Shown here: piece by piece, positions 16,178 to 42,141 of the stretch
Position numbering within the stretch: the stretch's first letter is position 1
How the letters are laid out: each line of letters starts with the position of its first letter
Assembly (NCBI GenBank): GCA_964510805.1
Contig: CAZEDG010000005.1
Span: 1-44,979, forward strand
Length of the DNA stretch: 44,979 nt
Source of the DNA: an uncultured Candidatus Saccharibacteria bacterium
Lineage (GTDB): Bacteria > Patescibacteriota > Minisyncoccia > Phycocordibacterales > UBA5272
Reading direction: 5' to 3'
Notes under the pieces: model-generated
Told to the model about the DNA's origin: nothing
Databases searched by the model: none
What the model saw: only the letters and a program-made list of their open reading frames with translations
Translations under genes and position numbers: made by a program

Positions 16178-16279
16178 TAATTCGTTATTCGTAATTAGCA
16201 GAAGCGACACCTTCGGTGTCGCTTCTGTACTTTTGTATTCTGTATTACACGAATTACGAATAACCAATAACGAATTACT
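16176..16279. repeat. Intergenic mosaic element, copy A4 (palindrome 16199-16227)
   Basis: CAGAAGCGACACC-TTC-GGTGTCGCTTCTG. The outer inverted arms are AGTAATTCGTTATTCGTAATT and AATTACGAATAACCAATAACGAATTACT (7-bp units). Confidence 0.9.
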
Positions 16280-16343
16280 GGTTCCCTGTTCATAACTTCT
16301 TCCTTCCTCCACCTATTCCGGGCTATACTTCAAGTATCTTTCT

Positions 16344-17288: not shown

Positions 17289-17296
17289 TAATTACT

Positions 17297-19009: not shown

Positions 19010-19215
19010 AAGGACTAGATGTTAGCTACGAGACTTTAGAGGTTAGAGATACAAGAGCGACACCTTCGGTGTCGCTCTTGTATTCTTGTATCTCGTCTGT
19101 AGTCTATTTATCTGTGTTCTGTTGTCTCATTTTGCCTTCTGCCTCGCTCTTGTATTCTGTGTTATCTGTATTTTCTAAAGTCTAACATCTAATATCTAGT
19201 GCCATTAACTATCTG
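19010..19215. repeat. Intergenic mosaic element, copy A5 (palindrome 19049-19083)
   Basis: ATACAAGAGCGACACC-TTC-GGTGTCGCTCTTGTAT. Starts ACTAGATGTTAG and ends CTAACATCTAATATCTAGT. Shares a 57-bp block with copy A6. Confidence 0.9.
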
Positions 19216-19255
19216 TTTACCCTCTACTCTCTGTATTTTATGGTACACTATTAGC

Positions 19256-21997: not shown

Positions 21998-22024
21998 AAT
22001 AAAATCATATACTATACTAACACT

Positions 22025-22765
22025 ATGGCACTTCCATCATATGTAGCAAAAGATATAGATGATCGTTTCGATAATGCTTCTGAAGAAATTCAGAATGTTA
22101 TTTTAGAAGAAGCGGACAAAACAACTCTTGCTCTTGGAGAAAAATATAAGATACCTCTTGCCAATCAGACTGCACTATCTGATGTCATTTCGTACACCCT
22201 CCTTGGTGCAATAGAACCAGGGGATGTGGTACAAGCTCTTCAAGATATGGTACTTGTGAGTAGCGAAGACGCAGTACATATCGCAGAAGATCTTGAGCAC
22301 TCAGTCTTCGAGAAGGCTCGTATCTCGCTCTTCAAAAAAAGCGGTGAAGTGAAGACGCTTGAATTCCAAGGAGATAAGACTAAGGATGATCTACGAAAAG
22401 CACTTCTTGATACCACCAAGCGCGAATCAGGGCTCAACAAAAACCAAGCAAAGGAAGGAGGAGATAAGAAGACAACTGTACTCGCACCAGGATCACGCGC
22501 ACAACTCCTAGAGCAACTCCAAGTACTTAGCTCTATTCCAAATGATGAAGAAATAGAGTCGAGACTTAAGCATATCCAGGACCAGATCTCTCTCATCAAA
22601 AAACAAGAAGAAGACAACACACTCACTTCAAATATCGCACTCAAATCCTTCCTCTTCGGAGAAAAAGGGAAGTCAGTCGCAGACCCAACCATTGCAACAG
22701 CAACCTATAGTGTCGCCCCAACAGAATACAACGTAGATCCGTATCGAGAACTACCAGCAGAATAG
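22025..22765 (+). CDS. Conserved-looking hypothetical protein ending in a DPYRE motif
   Basis: 246 aa with C-terminal YNVDPYRELPAE. TATACT 6 nt upstream of the ATG. Confidence 0.75.
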   Translation: MALPSYVAKDIDDRFDNASEEIQNVILEEADKTTLALGEKYKIPLANQTALSDVISYTLLGAIEPGDVVQALQDMVLVSSEDAVHIAEDLEHSVFEKARISLFKKSGEVKTLEFQGDKTKDDLRKALLDTTKRESGLNKNQAKEGGDKKTTVLAPGSRAQLLEQLQVLSSIPNDEEIESRLKHIQDQISLIKKQEEDNTLTSNIALKSFLFGEKGKSVADPTIATATYSVAPTEYNVDPYRELPAE

Positions 22766-23005
22766 AAACAATGACCGTCATTGCATGGGCCCGCAATGAC
22801 GGTCATTGTTTCTAGACAACAGACCACTTCGCTACAGACAGTAAGACAACAGACTAATACAAAAGCGACACCGAAGGTGTCGCTTTTGTGTTCTTGTATC
22901 TCGTCTGTAGTCTATTTATCTGTATTCTGTTGTCTCATTTTGCCTTCGATGTCGCTTCTGTGTGCCGGTATCCACTATTAACTATTAACCATTAACTACT
23001 AACCT
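22763..23005. repeat. Composite element: type-B hairpin (22763-22814) + copy A6 (22859-22889) + 57-bp block + TTAACYA heptamers
   Basis: 22-bp perfect stem around ATGGGCCC. ACAAAAGCGACACC-GAA-GGTGTCGCTTTTGT. 22891-22947 matches 19083-19139 at 56/57. Confidence 0.9.
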
Positions 23006-23024
23006 AGTATGGTATACTTTCCTT

Positions 23025-23459
23025 ATGCAATTTCGTGTCCCACAATTTATTGATGTAGAAGACAAAGTAATTGGCCCTTTTACCCTCAAACAATTCGGAT
23101 ATATCGTTGGAGCAGGGGGATTTTCTTTTCTCATTTGGACTTTTATACCGATTAAGTTCATTGCGGTACTTTTTATTATCCCTGTTGCTTCACTCTTTCT
23201 TTCGCTTGCTTTTCTTAAAATCAACAATAGACCTTTTGGAGATATTCTCGAAAGCGCCTTCAGTTACTATACAGGAAACAAAATTTATACATGGAAACAA
23301 CCAGAACAAAAAGCGACAGAGACTTCTGTTGATCAAGTTGTTGCCAACACCCAAAAAGAAATTATTATCGAAAAAACAAACCGTGACCGTATCCACGATA
23401 TTTCTCTTGGGCTTGATGTCTTCGATGCTAACTCACAGAAAGAAGATGACTCTAACTAA
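23025..23459 (+). CDS. PrgI-family (VirB3-like) membrane protein
   Basis: MQFRVPQFIDVEDKVIGPFTLKQFGY followed by two TM helices and KINNRPF. Confidence 0.85.
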   Translation: MQFRVPQFIDVEDKVIGPFTLKQFGYIVGAGGFSFLIWTFIPIKFIAVLFIIPVASLFLSLAFLKINNRPFGDILESAFSYYTGNKIYTWKQPEQKATETSVDQVVANTQKEIIIEKTNRDRIHDISLGLDVFDANSQKEDDSN

Positions 23460-23484
23460 AGATACGCTATACTAGGAAGTACGT

Positions 23485-24129
23485 ATGGCAACCCAAGGAC
23501 AAGCAACCCAAGCATTCGTTCCAATAGATCGTGTAAGAGATGGTATCGTTATCCTAAAAACAGGTGAACTACGAGCTATTCTTATCACGAACTCTCTTAA
23601 CTTAGGACTTAAGAGTGAGGACGAACAGCAGGCAATTCTTTCACAATTCCAAAACTTTCTTAACTCTCTTGATTTTCCTGTGCAATTCTTCATCGAGTCT
23701 CGCAAGCTTAACATCAAGCCATATATAGATCTTCTTCAAAAACGAAGCGGGGAAGTAAAAGAAGACCTTCTCAAGATTCAGATTCATGAATACATGGGCT
23801 TTATCACCAAGTTCACCGAAGAAAACAACATCATGTCTAAGCATTTCTTCATCAGTATTCCGTATTTTAACCAAAGCACAACCCAAGTAGCTCCTCCTAC
23901 ACTTCTTTCTCTTGCTGGGGTTAATAATCCAAGCAATTCATCATTTGATGCGTCATTTGAAGCGGCGCGCATCCAGTTAGAGCAACGAACCTTAACAGTA
24001 CTACAAGGACTCTCAAGGTTCGGTCTCCGTGCACAGAGACTTGGTACAGAAGAGGTGGTAGAACTTTTTTATAAAATCTTCAACCCAAGTGAAGAAGACC
24101 GTGAAGCTCCTAAGGTAGGAACACAATAA
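23485..24129 (+). CDS. VirB4-associated protein (resembles the N-terminal non-catalytic part of conjugative ATPases)
   Basis: VPIDRVRDGIVILK...SLNLGLKSEDEQQAIL...FLNSLDFPVQ. Lies between PrgI and VirB4. Confidence 0.65.
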   Translation: MATQGQATQAFVPIDRVRDGIVILKTGELRAILITNSLNLGLKSEDEQQAILSQFQNFLNSLDFPVQFFIESRKLNIKPYIDLLQKRSGEVKEDLLKIQIHEYMGFITKFTEENNIMSKHFFISIPYFNQSTTQVAPPTLLSLAGVNNPSNSSFDASFEAARIQLEQRTLTVLQGLSRFGLRAQRLGTEEVVELFYKIFNPSEEDREAPKVGTQ

Positions 24130-24140
24130 CACTAACTAGT

Positions 24141-25967
24141 ATGGGATTATTCGACTTTTTAAACAAAAAACAAGACAAACCTCTCTCTTCACCTGTTACT
24201 CCGGTGCTTCCAGAGCAGGTGTATAAAGTTGCGGAGATGCAACTTAAGGATATTATTGCGCCAAGTGCTCTTGAAATTAAACCAAAAGAACTTGATCTTG
24301 GTACGGTTATTGTTCGTTCTTATTTCGTTACTTCATATCCTCGTTATCTTAACGATAATTGGCTAAGTCCTCTTATCAATCTCGACAAAATATTTGATAT
24401 CTCTATTCATGTTGTTCCTCTTAACACAGGAGAGGTGATGAAGGGATTCCAAAGAAAAGTTGCCGAAGTGCAAAGCCAGATTATGACACGAGAAGAGAAG
24501 GGGCTTGTGCGAGATCCTTCTCTTGATGTTGCGTACCAAGACCTCGAAGATCTTCGTGACGGACTCACCCAAGCACAAGAGAGAATGTTCGAAGTATCAC
24601 TCTATATCACACTCTATGGCAAGACCAACGAAGAGATAGATAAGGTTGAAAATGAGATCAAGAACATCCTTGAGAGTAAACTTATCTACGTGAAGCCTTC
24701 ACTTTTCCAACAAGACGCAGGATTCCTCTCCACAATTCCGGTAGGGCAAGATATTATGCAGATCAAGAATAAGATTAACACCTCACCGTTGTCTTCATTC
24801 TTCCCATTTGTTTCATTTGATCTTTCTTCTGATAAAGGTATTCTCTACGGACTCAATCGTCACAATGGAAGCCTTATCCTTTTCGATCGTTTTTCTCTTG
24901 AAAACTACAACTCTATTGTCTTTGCTAAGTCAGGTTCTGGAAAAAGTTATTTCACCAAGCTTGAAATCTTGCGCACACTCATGTTCGATACTGAGGTGAT
25001 TATTATTGACCCTGAACGAGAATATGAGTTCTTGGCTGAATCTGTTGGAGGAAGATATTTCGATATTTCTCTTGTTGGAGAACATCATATTAACCCTTTT
25101 GACCTTCCTCAACCAACCAAAGATGAATCTCCTTCTGAAGTGCTTCGTAGTAACATTGTTAACCTTGTAGGACTTTTCCGTGTCATGCTTGGAGGTCTTA
25201 GCCCAGAAGAAGATGCGATTATCGACCAGGCAATTACTGAAACGTACGCACTCAAGGACATCACCGGAGATTCTGATTTTACTGAACTTGAGCCACCTCT
25301 TCTTTCTGATTTTGAGACGGTACTTTCTGGTATCGAAGGATCAGACAGTCTTCTCCAAAGAGTTCAGAAGTATACACAAGGCACGTGGTCTGGTTTTCTT
25401 AACCAACCATCCAATGTTGATATCAACAAGAAGCTTGTCTGTTTCTCTATTCGTGACATGGAAGATGAGCTTAAGCCTGTTGCGATGTATCTTATTACTC
25501 ATCACATTTGGAACGCTGTTCGTAAGAATCTTCGCAAGAGACTTCTTGTTGTTGATGAAGCATGGATTATGATGAAGAATGACGATACTGCGTCATTCCT
25601 CTTTGGACTCGCGAAGCGTGGTCGTAAGTACTATCTTGGTCTTGCAACCATCACTCAAGATGTGGGCGACTTCCTTAAGTCACCATATGGACTTCCTATT
25701 ATTACCAACTCATCAATCCAGATTCTCCTTAAGCAATCACCTTCTTCTATCGACCTAATCCAAAAGACATTCAATCTTACTAACGAAGAAAAATTCTTAC
25801 TTCTTGAATCTGGTGTAGGTGAGGGGATATTCTTTGCTGGACTCAAGCATGTAGCAATTAAAGTTGTTGCTTCATATACCGAAGATCAGATTATCACCAG
25901 TGATCCATCACAACTTCTTAAGATTCAACAAATGAAAGAAGAAGTGGCGGATTCAAAAAACGTATGA
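24141..25967 (+). CDS. virB4: VirB4-family secretion ATPase
   Basis: Walker A AKSGSGKS, IIIDPEREY, HINPFD, Walker B LLVVDEAW, GRKYYLGLATITQDVGDF, GEGIF. Confidence 0.9.
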   Translation: MGLFDFLNKKQDKPLSSPVTPVLPEQVYKVAEMQLKDIIAPSALEIKPKELDLGTVIVRSYFVTSYPRYLNDNWLSPLINLDKIFDISIHVVPLNTGEVMKGFQRKVAEVQSQIMTREEKGLVRDPSLDVAYQDLEDLRDGLTQAQERMFEVSLYITLYGKTNEEIDKVENEIKNILESKLIYVKPSLFQQDAGFLSTIPVGQDIMQIKNKINTSPLSSFFPFVSFDLSSDKGILYGLNRHNGSLILFDRFSLENYNSIVFAKSGSGKSYFTKLEILRTLMFDTEVIIIDPEREYEFLAESVGGRYFDISLVGEHHINPFDLPQPTKDESPSEVLRSNIVNLVGLFRVMLGGLSPEEDAIIDQAITETYALKDITGDSDFTELEPPLLSDFETVLSGIEGSDSLLQRVQKYTQGTWSGFLNQPSNVDINKKLVCFSIRDMEDELKPVAMYLITHHIWNAVRKNLRKRLLVVDEAWIMMKNDDTASFLFGLAKRGRKYYLGLATITQDVGDFLKSPYGLPIITNSSIQILLKQSPSSIDLIQKTFNLTNEEKFLLLESGVGEGIFFAGLKHVAIKVVASYTEDQIITSDPSQLLKIQQMKEEVADSKNV

Positions 25968-26935
25968 CACGCTTCCTAAAACTAGTAACCTTTACTCTTT
26001 CGATATATCTAAGTACTTGTGTCTTTAGTTTTGCTGAGATTAGCGCTTCGGTTAAGTTGATGCCAGCTAATCCAGAACCAAAAAGTAAAGTCACCTTAAC
26101 TCTTGTAAGTTACTCGTTTAACCCAGATACTGCTTTTGTTTCATGGAAAGTAAACGGTCGAGACTTTGCTTCTGGTCTTGGAAAAAAAGATATTACCATC
26201 CAAACAGGTGATATCGGTGCAACCACTCAAGTCTCTGTTCATGCAGAAACAGCGGACGGATCTTCTATTGATCAAGTTATTAGCATCACTCCTTCTTCTG
26301 TAGTGTTACTCTATGAAGCTCCAAAAAGCTATGTCCCTCTTCTGTATGAAGGTAGATCTCTTCCAAGTGATGGAGCTCTTGTACGCGTAACCGCACTTCC
26401 TCAGCTAAGCGATAACGGCACACCTGTTCCTCCTGGGAACCTTTCGTATACTTGGTATCTTAATGATACTGTAGTAAAAAGTGTCTCTGGTGCAGGCAAG
26501 CAATCTGCACTCATTCGTCTTGATTACTTAAGAACAAGTAATGAGATTAGGGTCGTTGTTCGCAGTCCACTCGGAAACACTGCTGATGAAAAAATAACTA
26601 TCTACACTCACTCAATACTACCAATTCTCTATCTCTCTGATCCTCTTTTTGGTACTAATGTTACTACACGTATCGGTAAGAGATTCGAAACTACTCGAGA
26701 TTTTAGAATTGTTCTTGAGCCTTTTTATATTTCTTACAACGACCCAAAAGAAGCAACCTATTCTTGGTTTATTAATGGACTTCCATCAACCCCTCTTGAT
26801 GGAAGAACTCTTGATCTTCATCCAAAAGAAAATGATTATGGTATTAAAAAACTTTCCATAAAGCTCTACGGTGCGGACAAACGTCTACAGACAAGTGAAG
26901 TAGAGACCGAAATTGTTTTTGACACAAGAAAATAG
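25964..26935 (+). CDS. Exported beta-rich (Ig-like) protein
   Basis: Signal peptide (FSFA/E) and repeated YTWYLN/VSWKVN/YSWFIN strands. ATGA overlap with virB4. Confidence 0.7.
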   Translation: MTRFLKLVTFTLSIYLSTCVFSFAEISASVKLMPANPEPKSKVTLTLVSYSFNPDTAFVSWKVNGRDFASGLGKKDITIQTGDIGATTQVSVHAETADGSSIDQVISITPSSVVLLYEAPKSYVPLLYEGRSLPSDGALVRVTALPQLSDNGTPVPPGNLSYTWYLNDTVVKSVSGAGKQSALIRLDYLRTSNEIRVVVRSPLGNTADEKITIYTHSILPILYLSDPLFGTNVTTRIGKRFETTRDFRIVLEPFYISYNDPKEATYSWFINGLPSTPLDGRTLDLHPKENDYGIKKLSIKLYGADKRLQTSEVETEIVFDTRK

Positions 26936-26972
26936 TTTATACTAAGAAAAAATACCTCTGTATACGATTTCT

Positions 26973-27824
26973 ATGGCAACTTCTACCACCCCACTTTCTT
27001 ATATACCTCTTGAAGGAAAATCTTTAAATGCTCTTGGTGTCGAAGCTCCCACATTCGACGGCCAAGCCTCCTTACTTGCAACCTCTACTTTTGTCTATAC
27101 GTTATTCTTTATAGCTATTGTTATGGCTGCGTTTTATAGGTATGTCCATGCTGGAACATTACGTATTCAAGCTTCAGAGAGTGGTATACGACAATCTAAT
27201 GAGATTATACGTAAAGTAACACTTGGTCTTATTGGTGTCTTTATGTTGTTTATTCTTTTGTTTACAGTGAATAGGAATTTAGTGACAGGGGATGTGGGGT
27301 TCGGGGGGTTGAGTGGAACAAGTACGAGAATAGCAACGGGAGCACAAGGAAATCAACCGCAACAATCACAACCGTCACCTGCCCAAAGCGGAAGTAAGAA
27401 CTACCAAGAGAGACTTAAGAGTCATAATCAAACAGTCTCTAGACTTAGCCCTTCAGGGATTACAACAAATCATAACAATGCACCATGTACTGAGGACCAA
27501 TTCAATCAAAAATATCCAACTTGTACCAGTCTTGCATTTATGAGAGAAGAAAGTATACAGACGATTTTTAGAGTTAGTGGTGATTGTCATTGTAAACTTA
27601 TTATTACCAGTGGAACAGAACCAGGTCATGATAGTCACGGGGAGAACCTTCGCCCTTTTGATCTTCAAAAAAACGCTGAGCTTGATACTTTTTTGAAAGG
27701 AGTAAGTGGTTCAGTTACATCAAATAAGGATTGTGATGCTGTTTATAGATATAATGGTTTTAGTTTTTGTGACGAAAAGAGGAGACCTAATCCAACTTGG
27801 GCTCCACACTATCATGTGTACTAG
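26973..27824 (+). CDS. VirB2-type pilin module fused to a Zn-peptidase-like (M15/LAS, Hedgehog/DD-peptidase fold) cargo
   Basis: Two hydrophobic helices separated by a QASESGIRQSNEIIRK loop, then an S/Q linker. Cargo ITSGTEPGHDSHGENLRPFD...HYHV has six Cys. Confidence 0.7.
   Translation: MATSTTPLSYIPLEGKSLNALGVEAPTFDGQASLLATSTFVYTLFFIAIVMAAFYRYVHAGTLRIQASESGIRQSNEIIRKVTLGLIGVFMLFILLFTVNRNLVTGDVGFGGLSGTSTRIATGAQGNQPQQSQPSPAQSGSKNYQERLKSHNQTVSRLSPSGITTNHNNAPCTEDQFNQKYPTCTSLAFMREESIQTIFRVSGDCHCKLIITSGTEPGHDSHGENLRPFDLQKNAELDTFLKGVSGSVTSNKDCDAVYRYNGFSFCDEKRRPNPTWAPHYHVY
27048..27316 (+). repeat. 269-bp direct repeat copy 1 (pilin module)
   Basis: Matches 29239-29507 with 5 mismatches, 4 of them synonymous. 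Confidence 0.97.
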
Positions 27825-27875
27825 TGGTGTATTACCTACACACATTTATATTAGGTTCTTGCTATACTAAGCTCC

Positions 27876-29174
27876 ATGGACAATACCACCCGTAAACGTC
27901 TGGCAATCGCAGTACTTGTTGTACTCTTTTTTGTTGTCATTATTTTGGTGTGGTACTTTTTTTATGCGAAACCTACTGAAAGCCCTATAACAAAAAAAGG
28001 TGGCCCTTATTTTGGTCAACAAGGAAGACGTCCTGGGGACACCTTCATCCTCTCCCATGCAACATCTTCTTCTGTTACCTTCGTAAGTGATCCGCTTAAG
28101 GATCCTCTTGTTCAAATTTGGGACAAACCAGCAACAGGGGAAACCTATGTTGTACAAAATATCATGAAAGATGTCATGGAAAAGATTGATAATGGTTCTT
28201 CGACAGTAGAAGTAAAGAAAAGCGTCAAAGCAACCTCTACTATCGTTATGTTTGTTGACAGAGAAACAGGGTATATTTATGGGTACCCAATAGAGACTGG
28301 TAAGATTTTCCAGATTAGTAATACCCTTATTCCAGGAATCCATGACGCGTACATCTTTGGTGACGGCACACGTGTTCTTATGCGTTACATCGACCAACAA
28401 AAAAATACTGTTGTTGGTGTTATAGCTACCATTCCTCATGTTCCACAGATAGAGACACCTCTTCCTCTTACTCATATTGAGTATCTCAATTCAAAAGTAG
28501 TTTCTGTTGCAATAAGCCAAGATAAAGAAGAAGTCTCTTATGTAGTAGCAACTGATAATGGTTCTTCTATTTATACTCTTGATAAGGAGCGAGACCCTGT
28601 TCTTGTTGCTTCTTCTCCTTTTAAGGAATGGGACTTAAGTTACGGCGGAAAATCTCTCTACGTGACCACAAAACCTTCTGCATACATCGAAGGTATGACA
28701 TTCAGTCTTCCTCTTTTCCAGTCAGAAATAGTAAAGAAAACAGGTCTTATGACACTTCCTGATGAATCTGGAAATCTTTTTGCAAGTATGTGGGGTAAAC
28801 AAGGTTTGGTAACATTTTTGTATAACAATGGAGCTACTAAAGTGTTTTCTGTACAAACACTTACCAAGAAGTGCGCTTATGGAAGTGAATCACTTCTTGT
28901 CTGTGGTGTTCCACGTACAATCCCTAGAGGAAGTGAAGGTCTTCCTGATGATTGGTTCCAAGGAGCTATTACTTTCCAAGACGACCTCTCAGTAATTAAT
29001 AAGAATGAAGGGATTGCATACCCTCTCTATTCTTTTGATAGTACCAAGGAAGGGGACTTCGATGTATATGGGATTGCTGTTTCAGAAAAAAATGATTTGT
29101 ACACTTTTCTAAGAAGACAAGATGAGACTTTATGGCTTCTTAACACAAACCTGATTGTAGAAGAGCATGACTAG
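27876..29174 (+). CDS. Membrane-anchored beta-rich (propeller-like) protein
   Basis: N-terminal TM helix, short beta-strand repeats and a KCAY...LVCGVP Cys pair. TGCTATACT 7 nt upstream. Confidence 0.7.
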   Translation: MDNTTRKRLAIAVLVVLFFVVIILVWYFFYAKPTESPITKKGGPYFGQQGRRPGDTFILSHATSSSVTFVSDPLKDPLVQIWDKPATGETYVVQNIMKDVMEKIDNGSSTVEVKKSVKATSTIVMFVDRETGYIYGYPIETGKIFQISNTLIPGIHDAYIFGDGTRVLMRYIDQQKNTVVGVIATIPHVPQIETPLPLTHIEYLNSKVVSVAISQDKEEVSYVVATDNGSSIYTLDKERDPVLVASSPFKEWDLSYGGKSLYVTTKPSAYIEGMTFSLPLFQSEIVKKTGLMTLPDESGNLFASMWGKQGLVTFLYNNGATKVFSVQTLTKKCAYGSESLLVCGVPRTIPRGSEGLPDDWFQGAITFQDDLSVINKNEGIAYPLYSFDSTKEGDFDVYGIAVSEKNDLYTFLRRQDETLWLLNTNLIVEEHD

Positions 29175-30159
29175 TACCAGCCAAATTACCTATAAAGCGC
29201 TCGAAGGAGATTCTCTTAATGCGGTTGGGGTAAAGATGCCCACATTCGACGGCCAAGCCTCCTTACTTGCAACATCTACTTTTGTCTATACGTTATTCTT
29301 CATTGCTATTGTTATGGCTGCGTTTTATAGGTATGTCTATGCTGGAACATTACGTATTCAAGCTTCAGAGAGTGGTATACGACAATCTAATGAGATTATA
29401 CGTAAAGTAACACTTGGTCTTATTGGTGTCTTTATGTTGTTTATTCTTTTGTTTACAGTGAATAGGAATTTAGTGACAGGGGATGTGGGGTTTGGGGGGT
29501 TGAGTGGTAGCGGTGGTAGTAATGGATCAAAAATATCTACAACACAAACAGCATCCTCTCAAGGAACATCCAATACGCAAGGAAAAACTTGTGAATCTCC
29601 AGGTGCTGTTATTTCAAGAATGAGCTCACAGAATGGTGTCTGTGGTAATACTTCATGTACAAAGTTATCTGGATGTAATTACAAACAATACGAATCTGTA
29701 ATCGCAACCTACACAGGAAATGATACACGACTTAAGAAGATGGCTATTGTAGTACTTTGTATAGAATCAGGAGGTAATCAAAGGGCTTCCAATAATAATC
29801 CTGATGGAACGTATGACTGTGGTCTCATGCAAATTAACCAAAAAGCACCTTGTACAGACTCTTCTTTTAACATTGAATACAATATTCAAAAAGGAGTTGA
29901 TAAGCTACGATATGCTTTATCAAAAAGTTCTCAAGTGTATCCAGGAGTTCCTGTAGAAGCTACAGTATTTTCTTCTTATAATTGTTGCTCTAATGGCACA
30001 ATACCAGGTAGTCCAAGTAATGATTGCACACCGCAAGCAGGGTTCCCTTCTACACTTCCTAAATGGGCATGTCCTATTAATCCAGGTGAAGGGAAATATA
30101 ATATGTGTTCAGTAAAATCCTATGCCTGTGAAGCTTCTGCTTGTTTTAATCAACTCTAG
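29167..30159 (+). CDS. VirB2-type pilin module fused to a Cys-rich lytic transglycosylase (SLT/VirB1-like) cargo
   Basis: Same pilin module as 26973. Cargo motifs CIESGG, YDCGLMQIN and SSYN, with 14 Cys. Confidence 0.82.
   Translation: MTSTSQITYKALEGDSLNAVGVKMPTFDGQASLLATSTFVYTLFFIAIVMAAFYRYVYAGTLRIQASESGIRQSNEIIRKVTLGLIGVFMLFILLFTVNRNLVTGDVGFGGLSGSGGSNGSKISTTQTASSQGTSNTQGKTCESPGAVISRMSSQNGVCGNTSCTKLSGCNYKQYESVIATYTGNDTRLKKMAIVVLCIESGGNQRASNNNPDGTYDCGLMQINQKAPCTDSSFNIEYNIQKGVDKLRYALSKSSQVYPGVPVEATVFSSYNCCSNGTIPGSPSNDCTPQAGFPSTLPKWACPINPGEGKYNMCSVKSYACEASACFNQL
29239..29507 (+). repeat. 269-bp direct repeat copy 2 (pilin module)
   Basis: Offset 2191 bp from copy 1. Identity ends abruptly after GGGGGGTTGAGTGG. 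Confidence 0.97.
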
Positions 30160-30878
30160 AGAGGTTTAAGGTGCGCTAACTTATTCTTAACATAAATATC
30201 AAGTACATAACTCACCGAACTACTTACAAGCCAGTAAAGAGATAAAGCAGAAGGAAGCACACTTCCAGATATTGCAACAATAATTGGAATAACATACGTT
30301 ACCTGAATTTTCATCGACTTCATAAAATGATCTTGGAAAGAATCTCCCCCTTTTGAATGATCACTAGAACCCATATATTCTGTTTGTCTTCTTGCAAGTA
30401 AAAATGAAGCAAAGCCAGCAAGCACAGCAATAACAAGATTCTTTTGTGTTACATCAAAAAGACCGAATGCTTTTGTGTGCAACGTTTCTGGAAAAGTAAT
30501 AAAAGAATACAAAGAGTTAGGGTCAGTGTGTAACCCTTTAGAAAAGACGAAATAGAGCGCAAAGAATACAGGAATCTGAAGTATCATTGCAAAAAGCCCA
30601 GACAATGGATTAATCTTTTCACTTCTATAGAGTTCAATCATTTTTTTAGAAGCCTCTTGCGGATCTTTCTTTTGTAACTCTTTTATTTTGTTTAGTTCTG
30701 GCTCAATTTTCTTCATCAAGTACTGTGTACGAAGTGCAGAGACGTTAAAAGGAAGAAGAAGTAACTTTACAATAAGCGTCACAATAATAATTGTCGCTCC
30801 GATATCATGAAGAGGGACAACGGTAAGAGTAAAAGCAATAAGATTGTAAACTGGTTCGTAAAATAAAGTATGGAACAT
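30156..30878 (-). CDS. yidC: Membrane protein insertase YidC/Oxa1
   Basis: IIVTLIVKLLLLP, KIEPELNKIKE, LYRSEKINPLSG, QIPVFFALY, LSLYWLVSS. Canonical position after rnpA. Confidence 0.95.
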   Translation of the reverse strand: MFHTLFYEPVYNLIAFTLTVVPLHDIGATIIIVTLIVKLLLLPFNVSALRTQYLMKKIEPELNKIKELQKKDPQEASKKMIELYRSEKINPLSGLFAMILQIPVFFALYFVFSKGLHTDPNSLYSFITFPETLHTKAFGLFDVTQKNLVIAVLAGFASFLLARRQTEYMGSSDHSKGGDSFQDHFMKSMKIQVTYVIPIIVAISGSVLPSALSLYWLVSSSVSYVLDIYVKNKLAHLKPL

Positions 30879-30880
30879 AA

Positions 30881-31198
30881 TTATCTAAGTGTAGCAAATG
30901 CTTTTTGTAATTCTAAACTAAACTGTGAGTAGGGGGTAGTGAGTGCTTTTTGTTTTGGATAAATCACACAAGAATACGTTGGTGGAATACTAACTGTCTG
31001 TAAAAAAGTATACACTTTTCTTTTTACATAATTTCTATCAACTGCTTTTTTAATTGTTTTTTTGGAAATAACACAAGCGTATTTTTGGTTCGGTAAAGCT
31101 TCTGTATAAGCGATATCGAATAATTCATGACGAAAAAAGACCCGAGGACGTAATCCTTCGAAGTCTTTTTTTGAAAATCGCTTCGTTACAGGAAGCAT
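30881..31198 (-). CDS. rnpA: Ribonuclease P protein component
   Basis: MLPVTKRFSKKDF, VISKKTIKKAVDRNYVKR (RNR-like motif). Synteny with rpmH and yidC. Confidence 0.92.
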   Translation of the reverse strand: MLPVTKRFSKKDFEGLRPRVFFRHELFDIAYTEALPNQKYACVISKKTIKKAVDRNYVKRKVYTFLQTVSIPPTYSCVIYPKQKALTTPYSQFSLELQKAFATLR

Positions 31199-31216
31199 AC
31201 ATCTACTAATCTAAGC

Positions 31217-31351
31217 TTATACACTAAGCTTTTTGCGACCAATACTTCTTCTTCTTGCAAGAGCTTTACGTCCACCTTTAGTAGACATTCTTACTAGGAA
31301 TCCGTGGGTTGTACCTCGCTTCTTTCTTTTTGGATTATATGTAATCGACAT
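31217..31351 (-). CDS. rpmH: 50S ribosomal protein L34 (44 aa; not in ORF track)
   Basis: Translated by hand: [50 protein letters not shown] 6 nt upstream. Confidence 0.96.
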
Positions 31352-31483
31352 GGCGCTATTCTACATTAAAACTACGAACAAATCAAGAAAGTATCTTTTT
31401 TGAAATAATAAAGAGAAAATACTTCAAAAAAAACATACGTCAAGTTGAATCTCTACCATTCATGTGTATACTTACTCATACAT

Positions 31484-32821
31484 ATGGACTATCAACAACT
31501 TTGGAACAGTGCTTTATCCCAAATTGAGATAGAACTCTCTCGAGTGAACTTTAACACGTGGTTTAAAAATACGCGCATTATTGATTACAAAGAAGGGGAG
31601 GTTACTATTGGTGTTCCTAATGAATTTGTTAAGGATTGGCTTAATCAAAAGTATCATAAATTCATACTAAGAATACTAAGAACGATTCACGAAGGAGTAC
31701 GTTCTGTAATCTTTACTGTAGTAAAACCAGAAACACTACAAAAGAAAGCTCAACATATCTCAATTGTCGGTCAACCTCTTCCTCTTGGTGATCTTTATAT
31801 TAATAAAGATGATGGCCTTAACTCACGGTACACCTTTGATAACTTTATTGTAGGATCATTTAATGAAGTTGCATACGCTTGTTCTCAAGCGGTAATCAAT
31901 AATCTTGGTATTATCTATAATCCTCTTTTTATTTACGGAAGTACAGGCCTAGGGAAAACTCACCTTCTTCAAGCAATAGGAAATCATATTAAGAAAAAGC
32001 ATCCTGAGAGAAAGATTTTTTATACTTCTCTTGAAAAGTACTACATGGATTATGTAAACGCTACTAATCTCAATAAGATTAACAGCTTCAAAGAGAAGTA
32101 CCGTAAGTTCGATGTGTTTATTATGGATGATATTCAGTTTATTAACGGAAAAGAAAGAACTCAAGATGAACTATTCCATCTTTTTAACTCTCTTTATGAG
32201 ATGAATAAACAAATCATCTTTTCTTCAGATAAACACCCTAACCTTATCCAGGGACTAGAAGACCGACTACGATCACGTTTTAATCATGGAATGATTGTTG
32301 ATGTTAATATTCCATCTATGGAATCACGTCTTGCAATTCTCCAAGTAAAGACAAGGGATTTCCAAGAAAAAATTCCTCAAGAAGTACTTCAATATATCGC
32401 CGAAACAATTCAAGGTAATATCCGTGAACTAGAAGGAGTAATGACTTCAATTCTTGGTCATATTCAAGTAAAACAACAAGCAATTTCTCTTCCTGATGTA
32501 AAAAATCTTCTCAAGAACAGCGTGCGAGCTAAGAAAAGTATTTCTATTCCTGAGATTGTAAAGGTTATTTCTGATTACTATCATATCCCTGATGTATATA
32601 TTTACAACAAAACAAGAAGAAAAGATGTAGTAAAACCTCGTCAGATAGTTATGTTTATTCTTCGTGAAGATTTCGACATCTCATACCCTATGATAGGTGA
32701 TAGATTAGGAGGAAGAGATCATACTACAGTAATTCATTCTTACGAAAAAATTAAAGGTCTTCTAAAAGATAACCCTCAACTCTCTCGAGAAATAGAAGAT
32801 ATTCGTGCGATGCTTGTGTAG
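31484..32821 (+). CDS. dnaA: Chromosomal replication initiator DnaA
   Basis: NFNTWF, YTFDNFIVGSFN, YNPLFIYGSTGLGKTHLL, DDIQF, GNIRELEG, GGRDHTTVIHS. ATG 31484 preferred; TTGAAT-16-TATACT upstream. Confidence 0.98.
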   Translation: MDYQQLWNSALSQIEIELSRVNFNTWFKNTRIIDYKEGEVTIGVPNEFVKDWLNQKYHKFILRILRTIHEGVRSVIFTVVKPETLQKKAQHISIVGQPLPLGDLYINKDDGLNSRYTFDNFIVGSFNEVAYACSQAVINNLGIIYNPLFIYGSTGLGKTHLLQAIGNHIKKKHPERKIFYTSLEKYYMDYVNATNLNKINSFKEKYRKFDVFIMDDIQFINGKERTQDELFHLFNSLYEMNKQIIFSSDKHPNLIQGLEDRLRSRFNHGMIVDVNIPSMESRLAILQVKTRDFQEKIPQEVLQYIAETIQGNIRELEGVMTSILGHIQVKQQAISLPDVKNLLKNSVRAKKSISIPEIVKVISDYYHIPDVYIYNKTRRKDVVKPRQIVMFILREDFDISYPMIGDRLGGRDHTTVIHSYEKIKGLLKDNPQLSREIEDIRAMLV

Positions 32822-32826
32822 AGAGA

Positions 32827-32999
32827 CTAGATGTTAGATATTAGACTTTAGAGATTAGAAAATACAAGAGTGAAGCCTTCGGCCTCACTCTTGTATTTTT
32901 GTATCTACTATTAACCATTAACTATTAACTTATTTATACTTCTCTAACATCTAGTTTCTCATTTTCATTCTTCATTCCTCACTCTTTTCCTAACATCTA
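32827..32999. repeat. Intergenic mosaic element, copy A7 (palindrome 32859-32899)
   Basis: TAGATGT TAGATAT TAGACTT TAGAGAT TAGAAAA heptamers, then AAAATACAAGAGTGAAGCC-TTC-GGCCTCACTCTTGTATTTT. 12-bp inverted ends at 32827-38 and 32943-54. Confidence 0.9.
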
Positions 33000-33004
33000 T
33001 CATC

Positions 33005-33230
33005 TGTGTATAACTCTGTGGATATGTTAATAATAAGAAAAGAATAACTTCATAGTTATCCTTTTGATAGGTATACAATTCTCTTTCTTACCCACAACCG
33101 AGGTTTCTTTTCCTACATATGAGCTCTTAGTAAGTTCCTTATAAAACTATTGAAAATAAAAGATTTTTAAGAATTTCCACATCATCCACAGACCTATACT
33201 TAGTATTATATTTTATATATACTAAGAACT
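33005..33230. other. Probable oriC (dnaA-dnaN intergenic)
   Basis: DnaA-box matches TGTGTATAA 33005, TGTGGATAT 33017, TTACCCACA 33088, ATTTCCACA 33173 and TCATCCACA 33182, followed by an AT-rich tract. Confidence 0.75.
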
Positions 33231-34322
33231 ATGAAATTCGAATGCAAAGGTGATACATTTATAAAAGCGGTACAGCAAGTAGCAAAGGCTCGTAGTAAAG
33301 TGCAGTCTAAGAATGCCTTACAAGATATCCATCTTGAGATAACAAACCATCTTCTTACACTTCGTGCAACGAACTTAGAACTTTTTTGTGAAAAGAGTAT
33401 TTCAGTAAAAGGTGTTGTTAACGGAGCTTGTCTTATTCAAGGAGAAACACTGCTTCGTATCCTTGCGACATTTAGTTCCAAAGATATCACACTTAACTGT
33501 GAGTTAATTGAAGGAGTCTTTGCGATTACTACTGATAAAGGTACTATAGAAATCAAAACAACTCCATATGAGGATTTTCCAACACTACCACCACAAGGAG
33601 ATCAGATAGGGATGGTTAATAAGAATATAATAAGTACTCTCCTTAAAGAGGTTTCATTCTGTTCTGCAAAGAGTGATATAAAGCCAGAAATTGCCTCTGT
33701 ATACCTCTATACTAAAGATTCTTATATTTACTCCGTTGCAACTGATTCTTATCGTCTTGCCGAAAAATCTGTACGTAACGAGAATGATTTAGAGTTCTCA
33801 TTTCTTGTTCCAGAAAAACATATCCCAGAGATATTACAGATCATCGGTGAAGAGGAAGGTGATATTCTTCTTACTAAGAGTGAAAATATCGTTTCTCTTA
33901 CAGGGGAAACTTTTACGTTATCAATTCATACAATTACTGGATATTTTCCTGATTACAGACAACTTTTTCCAAAAGAATTTATTACACATATAACCCTTCA
34001 TAAAGATGATCTTCAGAAGGCGCTTACTTTAACCACGTTATTTAACGATCAGTATTCTCAAGTTGAATGTATTTTTGCTTCGGATAAGTGTACATTCCAT
34101 AGTCGTAGTGAAAAAGTTGGACAAGTAACTCACTCTATTGATATTACTAAAGAGGGTGATGATGTAGAAGCAAAATACAATAATAGATTCTTCCTTGAAG
34201 TACTTCCTTATATCGAAGGTAATGAAATTACTTGTAAGTTTTCTACTCCTAATAGACCTGTTTTTATTCAAGGAAAGAAAGATATTACGTTTACGTACCT
34301 CCTTATGCCTCTTAATAGGTAA
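33231..34322 (+). CDS. dnaN: DNA polymerase III beta sliding clamp
   Basis: LRATNLEL, EDFPTLP, VATDSYRLAE, GYFPDYRQLFP, YLLMPL. Follows dnaA. Confidence 0.96.
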   Translation: MKFECKGDTFIKAVQQVAKARSKVQSKNALQDIHLEITNHLLTLRATNLELFCEKSISVKGVVNGACLIQGETLLRILATFSSKDITLNCELIEGVFAITTDKGTIEIKTTPYEDFPTLPPQGDQIGMVNKNIISTLLKEVSFCSAKSDIKPEIASVYLYTKDSYIYSVATDSYRLAEKSVRNENDLEFSFLVPEKHIPEILQIIGEEEGDILLTKSENIVSLTGETFTLSIHTITGYFPDYRQLFPKEFITHITLHKDDLQKALTLTTLFNDQYSQVECIFASDKCTFHSRSEKVGQVTHSIDITKEGDDVEAKYNNRFFLEVLPYIEGNEITCKFSTPNRPVFIQGKKDITFTYLLMPLNR

Positions 34323-38622: not shown

Positions 38623-39132
38623 TTATAAAAACCCTTTAAGAATAAGGTTATTATGTCTACTTGCACTATGGGTAAGAGCAATTGCAATAGCATCAACTTC
38701 ATCGTCTAAGGTGTCTATGAGAAGAGGCTGTTTGAGGATTTTTGGAACCATAAGAGCAATATCTTCCTTAGTCGCCTTCCCATGACCAACAATCGCTAAC
38801 TTGATTTGAGGAGGGGAATATTCTGAGAGAGTAAGTCCGTATTTAAAAGAAAGATAAATACAAATACCACGAACCTCAGCTACAGTAATAATCGTCTTTT
38901 GGTTATTAGTAAAAAAGAGTGTTTCTATCGCAAGTTCATGAGGTGTGTAACGAGTAATAATTTCTTCAAGAGCTTCACCTATATGAAATAGTCTTTTCTC
39001 GAAAGAATCTTTTCGTGAAGTAGTAATACAATGAGAATATACCAAGGTTTCTTTTTGTCCTTCTTTGTCCAAAATACAAACACCAAGTCTATCAAAACCA
39101 GGATCAATACCTAAAATACGAATAACAGACAT
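38623..39132 (-). CDS. ruvC: Holliday junction resolvase RuvC
   Basis: ILGIDPG, LAIETLF, AEVRG, GHGKATKE, DDEVDAIAIALTH. Confidence 0.95.
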   Translation of the reverse strand: MSVIRILGIDPGFDRLGVCILDKEGQKETLVYSHCITTSRKDSFEKRLFHIGEALEEIITRYTPHELAIETLFFTNNQKTIITVAEVRGICIYLSFKYGLTLSEYSPPQIKLAIVGHGKATKEDIALMVPKILKQPLLIDTLDDEVDAIAIALTHSASRHNNLILKGFL

Positions 39133-39133
39133 A

Positions 39134-40117
39134 CTATTTCTTGAAGTGTTTGAGCGCTTTCTCTGTTGCTTTTCTTCCTCTGGTTGTTCTTTCTATCATA
39201 CCAATCTGAAGAAGATAGGGTTCAGTAACATCAGCGATTGTCGCTTCTTCTTCTCCTGTAGCTGCAGCGAGTGTGTTTAACCCAACAGGACCACCATTAA
39301 AAGTATTAACAAGACACTCAAGGATAATTCTCTCAGAGATACCGATACCAAATTCATCAATTTCAAGAAGTGATAAAGAGGTGTCAACAACTTCTCTATC
39401 AAGAAGCGCTTTATGAACCTGAGCATAGTCTCTTGCACGTTTGAGATAGTAGTTAGCGATACGAGGGGTGAATCTTGATCGTTTCGCAATTTCTTCCGCA
39501 GCGTCATCAGGAACTTCTGTTCCAAGTTTTTCACCGCTACGTTTTACAATGGTAGCGATTTCTTTATCTGTATAGTACTGAAGACGATATACTCCACCTG
39601 AAAATCTTGAACGAAGAGGTGCTGAGAGGAGAGAGATTCTCGTAGTTGCTCCAATAAGTGTAAAAGGAGGAAGATCGAGTTGTATTGTGCGTGCAGTTGG
39701 ACCTTTACCAATCACAATATCAAGCTTACCGCTCTCCATAGCAGGATACAGTACTTCCTCGATCATCTTATTTAATCTATGAATCTCATCAATAAAAAGC
39801 ACATCTCCTGGAGTGAGGTTAGTGAGTATGGCAGCGAGGTCTCCTACCTTCATGATAGCTGGACCACTTGAGAGTTTGAGATTAGAACCAAGCTCTTTTG
39901 CAATAAGATGAGCAAGTGTTGTCTTACCAAGTCCAGGAGGACCGTACAGTAGGATGTGTTCTGGTGGAGTGCCTCGCTCTTTTGCAGCAGTTAGGAGTAT
40001 ATGAAGATTCTTTTTGATTACTTCTTGCCCAACATATTCAGAAAAATGGACAGGTCGAAGAGTGCTATCAAGATGTCGTGTTTCTTCTTGTTCTATCACT
40101 TGGTTAGGGAGGGTCAT
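39134..40117 (-). CDS. ruvB: Holliday junction branch-migration ATPase RuvB
   Basis: LRPVHFSEYVGQ, GPPGLGKTT, LFIDEIHRL, FTLIGATTR, GGPVGL, RTTRGR. Confidence 0.97.
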   Translation of the reverse strand: MTLPNQVIEQEETRHLDSTLRPVHFSEYVGQEVIKKNLHILLTAAKERGTPPEHILLYGPPGLGKTTLAHLIAKELGSNLKLSSGPAIMKVGDLAAILTNLTPGDVLFIDEIHRLNKMIEEVLYPAMESGKLDIVIGKGPTARTIQLDLPPFTLIGATTRISLLSAPLRSRFSGGVYRLQYYTDKEIATIVKRSGEKLGTEVPDDAAEEIAKRSRFTPRIANYYLKRARDYAQVHKALLDREVVDTSLSLLEIDEFGIGISERIILECLVNTFNGGPVGLNTLAAATGEEEATIADVTEPYLLQIGMIERTTRGRKATEKALKHFKK

Positions 40118-40127
40118 GGTGAGGTAT

Positions 40128-40159
40128 TTGACAAAAGTTTTATATATGCTATAATAGCA
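40128..40159. promoter_or_regulatory. Bidirectional promoter
   Basis: Plus strand TTGACA(40128)-16-TATAAT(40150) with TGn. The near-palindrome TGCTATAATAGCA also reads TGcTATTAT on the minus strand toward ruvB. Confidence 0.7.
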
Positions 40160-40197
40160 CTATCTTACTGTTATTTAGGTAAGTAATTCTTTGTAAG

Positions 40198-40334
40198 AAC
40201 CTATATATCTCTAAACATCCGGGATTTATCCCACTTCCTAATTCAGAGGACGATCTGGTTGCACTCGTTGTCTCTGTGTCTATCCTTATGAAGGTTTGTT
40301 CTTCACCAAGGGGTTGCTTAGAGGTATATGGGTT
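40198..40334 (+). ncRNA. Structured RNA candidate, 6S-like rod with central bubble
   Basis: 40198-40216 pairs with 40316-40334 at 18/19 (two G-U). Apical stem 40244-53/40265-76. The bubble contains small hairpins. A strong promoter lies upstream and there is no credible ORF. Confidence 0.55.
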
Positions 40335-40434
40335 TTGAAAAAAGACTATAGTTTTTTAAGAGAAACGTGGCTTAAGGTTCACGTTTTTCTTTTTTCTATA
40401 AGCGAAGCGATCTGTGTTCTGTTGTCTAGTGCCA

Positions 40435-42141
40435 TCACTCTTCTGAAGAGTAGAGATCTACAACATGGCCAATTTCTTCAAAAGAAGTTACTCCTTCGAG
40501 TGCCTTTATTATAGCATCTTCACGAAGTGTTGGTATTTTTTGTGATTTTGAAGCTGTTCTTACTTCTCTTTCACTTGGGTTGGTGATCAGTGTTTTTTCT
40601 AGTTCTGCATTCATTACTACTGCTTCGAAAATTCCTGTTCTTCCTTTGTATCCTGTGTTTCCGCAGTGTTCACACCCCGTTGATCTATAGAGTGTATATG
40701 AAGGGGAAGGGATGTGGTCTTTCATAGAACCTTCTTTTCCTCCAATTTTCATTTCACCTAAGATATTTGTGATAACACGAGATTCTTTTTCGGTTGACTC
40801 ATATGCTTCTTTACATGATTCACATAGTTTGCGTACAAGACGTTGCGCAAGAGCAAGTGAAAGCGAACTTGAGAGTACTTTTGCATTGATGCCAAGATCA
40901 AGGAGACGCGGAATGGTTCCAAAGGCAGTGTTGGTGTGTAATGTTGAGAAGACAAGGTGACCGGTAAGTGCAGCATTCACCGCAACTTTTGCAGTATCTT
41001 CATCACGAATTTCACCTACCATGATTACATCAGGGTCTTGTCGTAGTGAAGCTCTTAACCCTGCTACGAATGAGTACCCTTTTTCGTTTTCTACTTGGGT
41101 TTGAGTAATACCTTCAAGATGATATTCGATAGGATCTTCGATGGTGATGATTTTTACCTCTGGTGTATACACATGACGAAGAAAGGCATAGAGTGTTGTT
41201 GTCTTTCCAGAACCTGTTGGTCCTGTGGTGAGAATGACTCCATGCGGTCTTTGTAATGCAAGTGTTACTTGCTCGCGAAGCACATCTGGAAAATCTATCT
41301 TCTCTATACCCGAGAGTGTGTTTCTTGGATCAAGGAGACGCATTACGAAGCTTTCACCGTAGTTACCAGGAACAATAGAGACACGAATATCAATCTCTAC
41401 CTGTCCAAGATCTACACTGAAGCGTCCATCCTGAGCTTTGCTTTTATTAGAAAGCTTAAGTCCCGAGAGTAGCTTAAGTCTACTTGTGACATTCTTAAGA
41501 AGATTCTGATCGAAGAATACAATGTCTTCAAGAACACCATTCACACGATAACGAAGACGCACCTTATCTTCCTCTGGTTCGATGTGGATATCACTTGCAC
41601 TGAACTTAAGCGCTCCTGCCATCATAAGTTCTATGACACGAGTAGTTTTGTAGAGTACTTGGGAATGAAGAAGTTCTTTGAAGAATGCTTCAAGCTCATC
41701 TCTGGTCTCGAAGTGTTCCATAAGGTTCGCCATCTTTTCTTCAGAAAGATCAAGCATCCCGCTCTCAACCTTAGTTCCTCTCCCGATATCTTGGTAACGA
41801 ACAAGTACATGTTCAAGAGAGGTATGAGAACAAAGGAAAAGTACAAGCTCCATACCTTTATCTTCAAGAGGTCGTAATATTGGTTCTAATTTTTCTTGAG
41901 ATGGGGAAATAGCAGCGACATAAAGCTTCTTCCCAACAAGTTTAAAAGGAACAACATTTCCTTCACGCGCTTGCTCTTCTTCGAGATAAACCATTGCGTC
42001 AGGTTCTGGTGCCATACCACGAAGATCGATATAGGGGAGACCATACTTATCAGAGAGAAGCTTCACAAGATTCTCTTCTTCTTCTTTTCTTAATTCGTCT
42101 AAACTTGCGTTTTGTTTTTCTTCATCGTAGAGAATTACCAT
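40435..42141 (-). CDS. pilB: Type IV pilus assembly ATPase PilB/GspE
   Basis: ASDIHIEP, QDGRF, TGPTGSGKTTT, TIEDPIEY, LRQDPDVIMVGEIRD, GHLVFSTLHTN, CxxC/CxxC Zn motifs. Confidence 0.93.
   Translation of the reverse strand: MVILYDEEKQNASLDELRKEEEENLVKLLSDKYGLPYIDLRGMAPEPDAMVYLEEEQAREGNVVPFKLVGKKLYVAAISPSQEKLEPILRPLEDKGMELVLFLCSHTSLEHVLVRYQDIGRGTKVESGMLDLSEEKMANLMEHFETRDELEAFFKELLHSQVLYKTTRVIELMMAGALKFSASDIHIEPEEDKVRLRYRVNGVLEDIVFFDQNLLKNVTSRLKLLSGLKLSNKSKAQDGRFSVDLGQVEIDIRVSIVPGNYGESFVMRLLDPRNTLSGIEKIDFPDVLREQVTLALQRPHGVILTTGPTGSGKTTTLYAFLRHVYTPEVKIITIEDPIEYHLEGITQTQVENEKGYSFVAGLRASLRQDPDVIMVGEIRDEDTAKVAVNAALTGHLVFSTLHTNTAFGTIPRLLDLGINAKVLSSSLSLALAQRLVRKLCESCKEAYESTEKESRVITNILGEMKIGGKEGSMKDHIPSPSYTLYRSTGCEHCGNTGYKGRTGIFEAVVMNAELEKTLITNPSEREVRTASKSQKIPTLREDAIIKALEGVTSFEEIGHVVDLYSSEE

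Follow-up and report, generated by a model that had tools for sequence, protein, structure and literature searches.

We analyzed a 44,979-nt stretch of DNA (the window) covering positions 1 to 44,979 of contig CAZEDG010000005.1 (assembly GCA_964510805.1) from an uncultured bacterium of the Patescibacteria, or Candidate Phyla Radiation (CPR), and followed up the non-coding gap that separates ruvB, with ruvC next after it, from a pilB-like ATPase gene. The 3 protein genes lie on the minus strand, and the gap holds a promoter and a set of helices that read on the plus strand (Table 1). A first-pass annotation of the same letters had described a near-perfect plus-strand promoter firing into a 270-bp gap without a credible open reading frame (ORF) and a hidden RNA of 6S-like architecture, either a reduced 6S or a new non-coding RNA. 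The promoter is as described, with a score of 12/12 plus a TG extension. The gap measures 317 bp, not 270, and contains no conserved ORF; a small ORF was rejected as its content since the sole ATG in the core is kept in just 29 of 61 relatives. Comparison with relatives showed that the gap contains an independent gene for a structured plus-strand RNA of an uncatalogued family, matching no catalogued RNA family. The proposal of a new structured non-coding RNA thus stood, and membership in the 6S family is not supported.

Searching species-representative genomes with RuvB, we collected 80 loci at RuvB identities of 66-92%, all of them in Patescibacteria/CPR assemblies labeled Paceibacterota, Nomurabacteria, Parcubacteria, and the like. 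A search with the window RNA (nhmmer) identified a homologous element immediately 5' of ruvB in about 69 loci, and a covariance model built from 61 sequences (R1, whose E-values are rough owing to a shortened calibration) detected the RNA in 79 of the 80 at 42-164 bits; in the sole exception (L065), just 159 nt are present 5' of ruvB. The RNA is oriented divergently from ruvB, as on the plus strand of the window, in all loci in which it was found, and its R1 score on the reverse strand is about 100 bits lower. Each retrieved locus carries 1 copy at the orthologous site, and the 45-kb window likewise carries 1. The RNA is vertically inherited in Paceibacteria-type CPR bacteria, in single copy within each retrieved locus. 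A RuvB protein search toward distant lineages gave, among the 120 matches listed, only proteins of at least 85% identity and does not set the taxonomic limits of the family. On contig CAZNZQ010000005.1 (L035, L036), the region of ruvB plus RNA occurs twice, inverted and identical in sequence, a pattern due either to an artefact of palindromic assembly or to a genuine inverted duplication.

Scanning metagenome contigs with the RNA motif alone (TTCTTCACCAAGRGGTTGYTTAGAG) yielded 32 further loci, so that more than 100 related ultra-small CPR bacteria carry the RNA. R1, run on 5 of these motif-selected contigs, matched all 5 (113-145 bits). The pilB gene adjoins the RNA in most of the 32, and ruvB is adjacent and divergent wherever the contig is long enough, except in L102, L104, and L107. 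A CTP synthase gene (227-1843) separates the RNA from ruvB in L102; in L107, a HicB/HicA toxin-antitoxin pair (4061-4566) separates pilB from the RNA, and between the RNA and ruvB lies a small ORF (5372-5575) whose 67-aa product has a lipoprotein-like signal; and in L104, a 181-aa ORF of no assigned family lies upstream. These 3 loci score 113-145 bits with R1, and the RNA of L107 retains its own promoter despite the inserted genes. Because the RNA persists at loci with inserted genes, we regard it as an autonomous gene whose adjacency to ruvB is strong but not absolute. Carriage by phages was considered as well: the 18-mer TTCTTCACCAAGRGGTTG occurs once in each of 7 IMG/VR viral contigs (L115-L121), which have no match to the RNA model, encode neither RuvB nor PilB, and look like chance matches. 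Since none of the 7 is the RNA, we rejected a phage-borne origin.

Covariation in the ruvB-upstream regions of relatives, the check that the first-pass annotation had named for its proposal, gave abundant support for a conserved structure. The claim rests on a plain MAFFT alignment of 61 species and 176 columns (A2), onto which a comparative structure of 53 pairs was placed, and not on a second alignment of 72 sequences (A3), because the latter was fitted to the model; A3 shows 38 pairs changed on both sides. In A2, 95.1% of cells are paired, and 30 of the 53 pairs are changed on both sides, with 318 compensatory cells distributed over 6 helices. None of 500 column shuffles reached any of these measures, and sliding the partners by 1-3 columns lowered the paired fraction to 39-51%. 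The strand is also marked, with 96.3% of cells canonical across the 61 species when read on the plus strand vs. 80.8% on the minus strand and with 477 G-U cells vs. 33 A-C cells at the predicted pairs. This asymmetry, together with the strand difference of about 100 bits, shows that the constraint acts on a plus-strand RNA, and it bears out the strand argument originally drawn from 2 G-U pairs. The segment 40163-40398 has a folding energy of -74.5 kcal/mol, with z = -6.0 on the plus strand and z = -4.65 on the minus strand.

The fold predicted from the alignment is a four-way junction composed of a closing helix of about 25 bp, the hairpin P2, an irregular arm P3 of about 20 bp, and the mini-hairpin P4, with two unpaired linkers of 4-6 nt flanking P3 at the junction. 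The pairing of 40198-40216 with 40316-40334 (18/19, including the 2 G-U pairs) noticed at first is present and corresponds in the comparative structure to P1, a wobble position, and P1b, which form one continuous helix. This closing helix contains 24 pairs, is 96% paired, and has 12-17 pairs changed on both sides; its wobble position is A.C in the window and most sequences and A-U or G.U in others. The 14 nt nearest the junction (consensus AUCUCUAAACAAUC; 40207-40220 in the window) are nearly invariant, as is the opposite strand. Distal P1, P2, and the P3 tip vary freely in sequence with pairing kept.

Of the 2 hairpins named initially inside the closing stem, GGGAT-TT-ATCCC was confirmed by covariation as P2, in which all 5 pairs are compensatory (e.g., GCUGA/UCAGC, GCCGG/CCGGC, and UAAGGC/GCCUUA). 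The other, CCTT-A-TGAAG...CTTCA-CC-AAGG, is contradicted by covariation: CCUU (40284-40287) pairs with AGGA (40247-40250), with compensatory ACGA/UCGU in 2 species, UGAA pairs with UUCA (40242-40245), and AAGG (40308-40311) pairs with UCUU (40300-40303) as P4. The minimum-free-energy fold of the single sequence is also contradicted in part by covariation and was discarded. Because P2, proven by covariation, fills the 5' side of the center, the ground state is predicted to be a four-way junction and not the 6S-like rod with a central bubble that had been suggested.

The 3-bp helix P3a shows exchanges of U-A to A-U and of C-G to U-A, and P3 is a long arm with nearly invariant motifs, namely AGGA/UCCU, a C opposite UA in an asymmetric loop, and the block UCUGG/CUGUG, made up of U.G, C.U, U.G, G.U, and G-C. 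The tandem G.U pairs of the arm are kept unchanged in 59-61 of the 61 sequences, and compensatory changes were found at 61/127, 62/126, 63/125, 66/121, 70/116, and 71/115 as well as at all 3 tip pairs. P4 is invariant in the main clade, where it sits inside a nearly invariant 18-nt block, UUCUUCACCAAGRGGUUG. In a divergent subgroup (L066-L081), it is swapped for CUUU-[longer stem-loop]-AAAG with an exchange of C-G to U-A, and these compensatory changes show that P4 is real.

Only 2 promoter-like sites were identified within 39000-41500, and the RNA promoter is one of them; its predicted transcription start lies near 40162-40164. Among 75 homologous loci, the promoter is 12/12 (TTGACA-N16-18-TATAAT) in 47 and at least 10/12 with TG in 68, located 14-99 nt 5' of P1. 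The leader that follows has unrelated sequences and lengths in the aligned homologues, many with hairpin potential, and P1 lies at a variable distance from the -10 element. At the other end, P1 of the window RNA runs into UUUU followed by GAA, the probable primary 3' end, and at least 4 U directly follow P1 in 53 of 72 homologues, from which we conclude that the closing helix doubles as an intrinsic terminator in most species. A second hairpin, with one A-rich and one T-rich flank, probably ends pilB on the minus strand and backs up termination of the RNA on the plus strand. Judged from the promoter and the U-run, the predicted transcript extends from about 40163 to about 40340 and is about 180 nt long.

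Table 1. Features of the RNA gene and its neighbors in the window (P, helix).
Feature	Position	Strand	Details
Non-coding gap	40118-40434 (317 bp)		Between ruvB start and pilB/T2SSE stop
ruvB	39134-40117	-	Pfam RuvB_N, AAA_lid_4, RuvB_C; divergent from RNA gene
ruvC	38623-39132	-	Pfam RuvC; next after ruvB
pilB-like T2SSE ATPase	40435-42141	-	Pfam T2SSE, MshEN; convergent, downstream of RNA
Sigma-70 promoter	40128-40155	+	-35 TTGACA at 40128-40133, 16-nt spacer, -10 TGcTATAAT ending at 40155
Variable 5' leader	40163-40195	+	Small hairpin at about 40164-40183; sequence not conserved between species
Closing helix, 5' strand	40196-40220	+	P1 40196-40214 (pairs with 40318-40336), wobble A40215 (opposite 40317), P1b 40216-40220 (pairs with 40312-40316)
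Closing helix, 3' strand	40312-40339	+	P1b 40312-40316, wobble C40317, P1 40318-40336, UUUU end, GAA
P2 hairpin	40221-40232	+	GGGAU-UU-AUCCC; junction 5' side
Linker, P3a 5' strand, and small loop	40233-40241	+	Linker consensus CAC-UU, ACUU in window
P3a, 3-bp helix	40237-40239 with 40293-40295	+	A2 columns 54-56 with 130-132
P3, long irregular apical arm	40242-40292	+	40242-40258 with 40274-40292; tip hairpin 40261-40271
P3a 3' strand and 4-nt linker	40293-40299	+	Linker UUGU, consensus A/U-U-R-U
P4 mini-hairpin	40300-40311	+	UCUU-CACC-AAGG; junction 3' side
Second hairpin terminator	40358-40397	both (predicted)	Stem 40358-40391, 13 pairs, then TTTTCT

In the window, 10 nt separate the start codon of ruvB from the -35 element of the RNA promoter; in relatives, the spacing is mostly 22 nt. 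The spacer directly 5' of ruvB reads GGTCAA-N3-TTGACA in some of L002, L003, L005, L007, L011, L025, and others, and these back-to-back -35-like hexamers suggest divergent promoters. On its own strand, the ruvB leader is C-rich, with no obvious Shine-Dalgarno sequence. Elsewhere in the window, yidC (minus strand), dnaA (plus), and dnaN (plus) lie together at 30156-34322, and the dnaA-dnaN spacer contains a cluster of 4 DnaA-box-like 9-mers with 1 mismatch each (33005-33190). This is probably a replication origin, and the RNA gene lies about 7 kb away. A run of plus-strand ORFs at 15272-30159, mostly without Pfam matches, resembles a cluster for type IV secretion or a conjugation-like process; among its products are a PrgI-like protein (23025-23459), a VirB4/TraG-like ATPase (24141-25967), and an SLT-like lysozyme (29167-30159). 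At E<=0.001, no Pfam domain was found in 2 very large ORFs, at 4720-8532 (1270 aa) and 19199-21997 (932 aa), and an NYN-domain protein, a predicted RNase, is encoded at the left edge of the window (138-665).

We compared the RNA with the 4227 families of Rfam 15. The whole window gave no match at the gathering score, RF00013 (6S) included, searches at E<=10 on 451 nt and 186 nt around the RNA returned nothing meaningful, again including 6S, and the loci of 7 divergent homologues had no relevant match at E<=5. In the reverse comparison, R1 run with filters off on the Escherichia coli ssrS locus did not match over ssrS; only terminator hairpins elsewhere matched. Because Rfam gave no match and R1 misses E. 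coli ssrS, we treat the RNA as a new family and not as a 6S member, and the match to RF00013 that the first-pass annotation would have looked for did not appear. No prior description was found in the literature, and full-text searches pairing 6S RNA with CPR or Saccharibacteria returned nothing; the pairing with Patescibacteria gave a single paper, on an unrelated topic.

Several known identities were tried and rejected. RNase P RNA was considered since AGGACGGUCUGG resembles its conserved region CR-I; neither RF00010 nor RF00011 matched at E<=10, and the core of about 150 nt is too small against the about 300-400 nt of RNase P RNA, which has a P1-P4 core with P10-P12 and P15. CPR genomes have their own diverged RNase P RNAs, which RF00010 detects (PMC8172020). 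Signal recognition particle RNA, transfer-messenger RNA, and tRNA gave no Rfam or ARAGORN match. For a retron non-coding RNA, there is no reverse transcriptase gene nearby; the neighbors are ruvB-ruvC and pilB, and likewise in most of the 32 metagenome loci. The ribozyme and riboswitch families in Rfam, including twister-sister, hairpin, hatchet, and pistol, had no match.

What the RNA does can be approached through its shape and its pattern of conservation. The most likely single specific function, to which we assign a probability of about 35%, is that of a 6S-type decoy of the housekeeping RNA polymerase holoenzyme. 6S RNA is a rod of about 200 nt in which loop-interrupted closing and apical arms enclose a central bubble with relatively little structure. 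The apical arm contains a -35-like element, and the bubble has a -10-like element on its 3' side; the template for a product RNA is the 5' side of the bubble together with the helix next to it, and the RNA then refolds (PMC8876501). In the ruvB-upstream RNA, downstream DNA would be mimicked by the closing helix and the open -10 region by the junction region, which includes the invariant 3' strand UUCUUCACCAAG; the counterpart of the -35 region would be a conserved irregular segment of P3 located 14-19 bp from the junction. In the 5' strand, the 14 invariant nt nearest the junction would template a short product RNA, 5'-GGAUGUUUAGAGAU-3', antisense to 40207-40220, which differs at 3 positions from the RNA's own 3' strand, GGUUGCUUAGAGGU. 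This putative product would displace the 3' strand, and the freed strand would refold to an extended 3' hairpin and thereby release the polymerase.

A 6S-type decoy fits the predicted length, which falls within 160-200 nt, and the stand-alone gene, the 2 long helical arms flanking a conserved center, and the presence of P4 on the 3' side of that center in all members. It also fits the closing helix, which has an invariant sequence in its proximal part and covariation alone in its distal part; the same conservation is found over the first ~11 nt of the 6S product RNAs of lactic acid bacteria (PMC8414754). When the 5' strand was masked, the 3' strand was modeled as an 8-bp hairpin (UUCU/AGAG plus CA/UG plus CC/GG). 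The E. coli 6S sequence that had been set beside this region, CCUUGAACC..GGUUCAAGG-GUU, is indeed present in ssrS. In the main clade, UUUCUAA could pair with UUAGAGG in a helix like the one by which the central bubble of 6S collapses; this pairing is not conserved in other members, and we did not use it as evidence.

A number of observations weigh against this function. RF00013 and the other Rfam families show no similarity even at E<=10 on the 186 nt, and the family model gives E. coli ssrS no score. The 5' side of the center is the P2 hairpin and no open bulge, so that only the linkers of 4-6 nt are unpaired. The apical arm P3 is irregular, as expected of 6S; the closing arm runs for about 25 bp uninterrupted with 1 wobble position and lacks the bulges to which 6S owes its B-DNA-like shape. 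The refolding hairpin is made up entirely of invariant positions and is therefore beyond a covariation test; it is not obviously conserved in the divergent subgroup, and the putative product would be A+U-rich. The non-canonical motifs that are invariant in P3 would suit any specific protein partner just as well. For the activities of 6S, namely binding of the sigma-70/sigma-A holoenzyme, templating of a product RNA, and refolding, the 8-bp hairpin of invariant bases is an in silico hint.

The main rival, only slightly less likely, is that the RNA serves as a scaffold or decoy for a protein other than RNA polymerase, bound through its invariant junction and the invariant internal loops of P3; candidates include a nuclease, an RNA-binding protein of the housekeeping type, and the neighboring recombination proteins. 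Conserved sequence is found mainly in the junction, P4, the proximal closing helix, and the P3 elements UCUGG/CUGUG and C/UA, while helix tips and distal stems vary freely, a pattern typical of ribonucleoprotein (RNP) cores, and the closed four-way junction without an open bubble agrees with it. The very strong linkage to ruvB-ruvC would also agree with it; this linkage is broken by insertions in L102, L104, and L107 without loss of the RNA and may for that reason be plain synteny. No candidate partner gene co-varies with the RNA in the loci examined, and Rfam recognized no known protein-binding RNA motif. A further reading, in which the RNA is a Holliday-junction mimic that binds or titrates the branch-migration and resolution machinery, seems very improbable to us. 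It would draw on shape (long arms P1 and P3, short P2 and P4) and on the synteny with ruvB-ruvC, and the unpaired linkers and the A-form geometry of RNA helices count against it; if true, such a mimic would do for recombination what 6S does for transcription.

The stand-alone gene with a terminator hairpin and U-tail would also suit a trans-acting small RNA whose invariant single-stranded stretch (UUCUUCACC..) pairs with mRNA or rRNA targets, as would the invariant 18-nt block. We consider this unlikely, as the block is mostly paired in P4 and P1b with only linkers of about 5 nt free, 4 covarying helices over 150 nt far exceed what seed pairing needs, and no target was identified. Decidedly unlikely is a catalytic or ligand-binding RNA, either a self-cleaving ribozyme or a trans-acting orphan aptamer: the multi-helix junction and the strictly conserved nucleotides of the junction and internal loops would agree with it, but no ribozyme or riboswitch family matched, the locus is single-copy and of the housekeeping type with no repeat, and there is no downstream gene on the RNA's strand to regulate. 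An element acting in cis or at the DNA level, such as the ruvB 5' untranslated region or an operator, a pilB terminator region, a miniature inverted-repeat transposable element (MITE), or a small ORF, was given hardly any weight. The location between 2 minus-strand genes, 10-22 nt from the ruvB start, would be compatible with it, and the long inverted repeat could in principle represent terminal inverted repeats. Against this stand the compensatory changes in 6 helices, the conserved plus-strand promoter, the lack of a conserved ORF, and the G-U asymmetry, which together with the difference in model score between the strands rules out a minus-strand ruvB leader; a MITE or insertion element is countered by the same asymmetry and by the single copy in the window and at the orthologous site of each locus.

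Much of bacterial diversity belongs to the CPR/Patescibacteria, and to our knowledge their non-coding RNA repertoire is almost unexplored. The ruvB-upstream RNA adds a high-confidence new family, present in essentially every relative examined, and its alignment and model can be used at once for genome annotation and for mining metatranscriptomes. If it is a functional 6S analogue, RNA-based control of RNA polymerase extends to the CPR, and a mimic of the open promoter can rest as a closed four-way junction. If it is not, these bacteria with their minimal genomes would have in it the core of an abundant housekeeping RNP, equally worth chasing.

Among known systems, 6S RNA (ssrS, RF00013) is the nearest in overall design. 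Both are stand-alone RNAs of about 180 nt with a strong sigma-70 promoter and 2 arms around a conserved center, and both have a hairpin on the 3' side, as seen in Bacillus subtilis 6S-1, lactic acid bacteria, and gamma-proteobacteria; further, the invariant proximal closing helix could template a product RNA, and the 3' strand has refolding potential. In contrast to 6S, the ruvB-upstream RNA has a 5'-side hairpin and a four-way junction instead of a bubble, its closing arm is bulge-free and doubles as a terminator, its internal loops are much more conserved, and covariance models find no similarity in either direction. The 6S gene of Firmicutes adjoins rarA, which encodes another AAA+ recombination ATPase (PMC8414754); we note the parallel with ruvB as a curiosity and did not use it as evidence. 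Ms1, the 6S-like RNA of actinobacteria that binds core RNA polymerase, was found by synteny and structure (PMC9130861, PMC4191392). It belongs to another lineage; by description, it is a lineage-specific 6S replacement that standard models miss, as the ruvB-upstream RNA may be. Retron msr-msd RNAs resemble the new RNA in their long helix closing the 5' and 3' ends, followed by short hairpins and then a long irregular hairpin, and differ from it in that the ruvB-upstream RNA has no reverse transcriptase nearby and is inherited vertically at one orthologous site and not sporadically. Orphan bacterial RNAs, such as the raiA motif and the bacterial Y RNAs, are distinguished from it by the lack of a match to Rfam models and, for Y RNAs, by the absence of an adjacent Ro/Rsr gene from the loci seen; like them, the ruvB-upstream RNA is a clade-restricted, covarying, multi-helix RNA with its own promoter and terminator.

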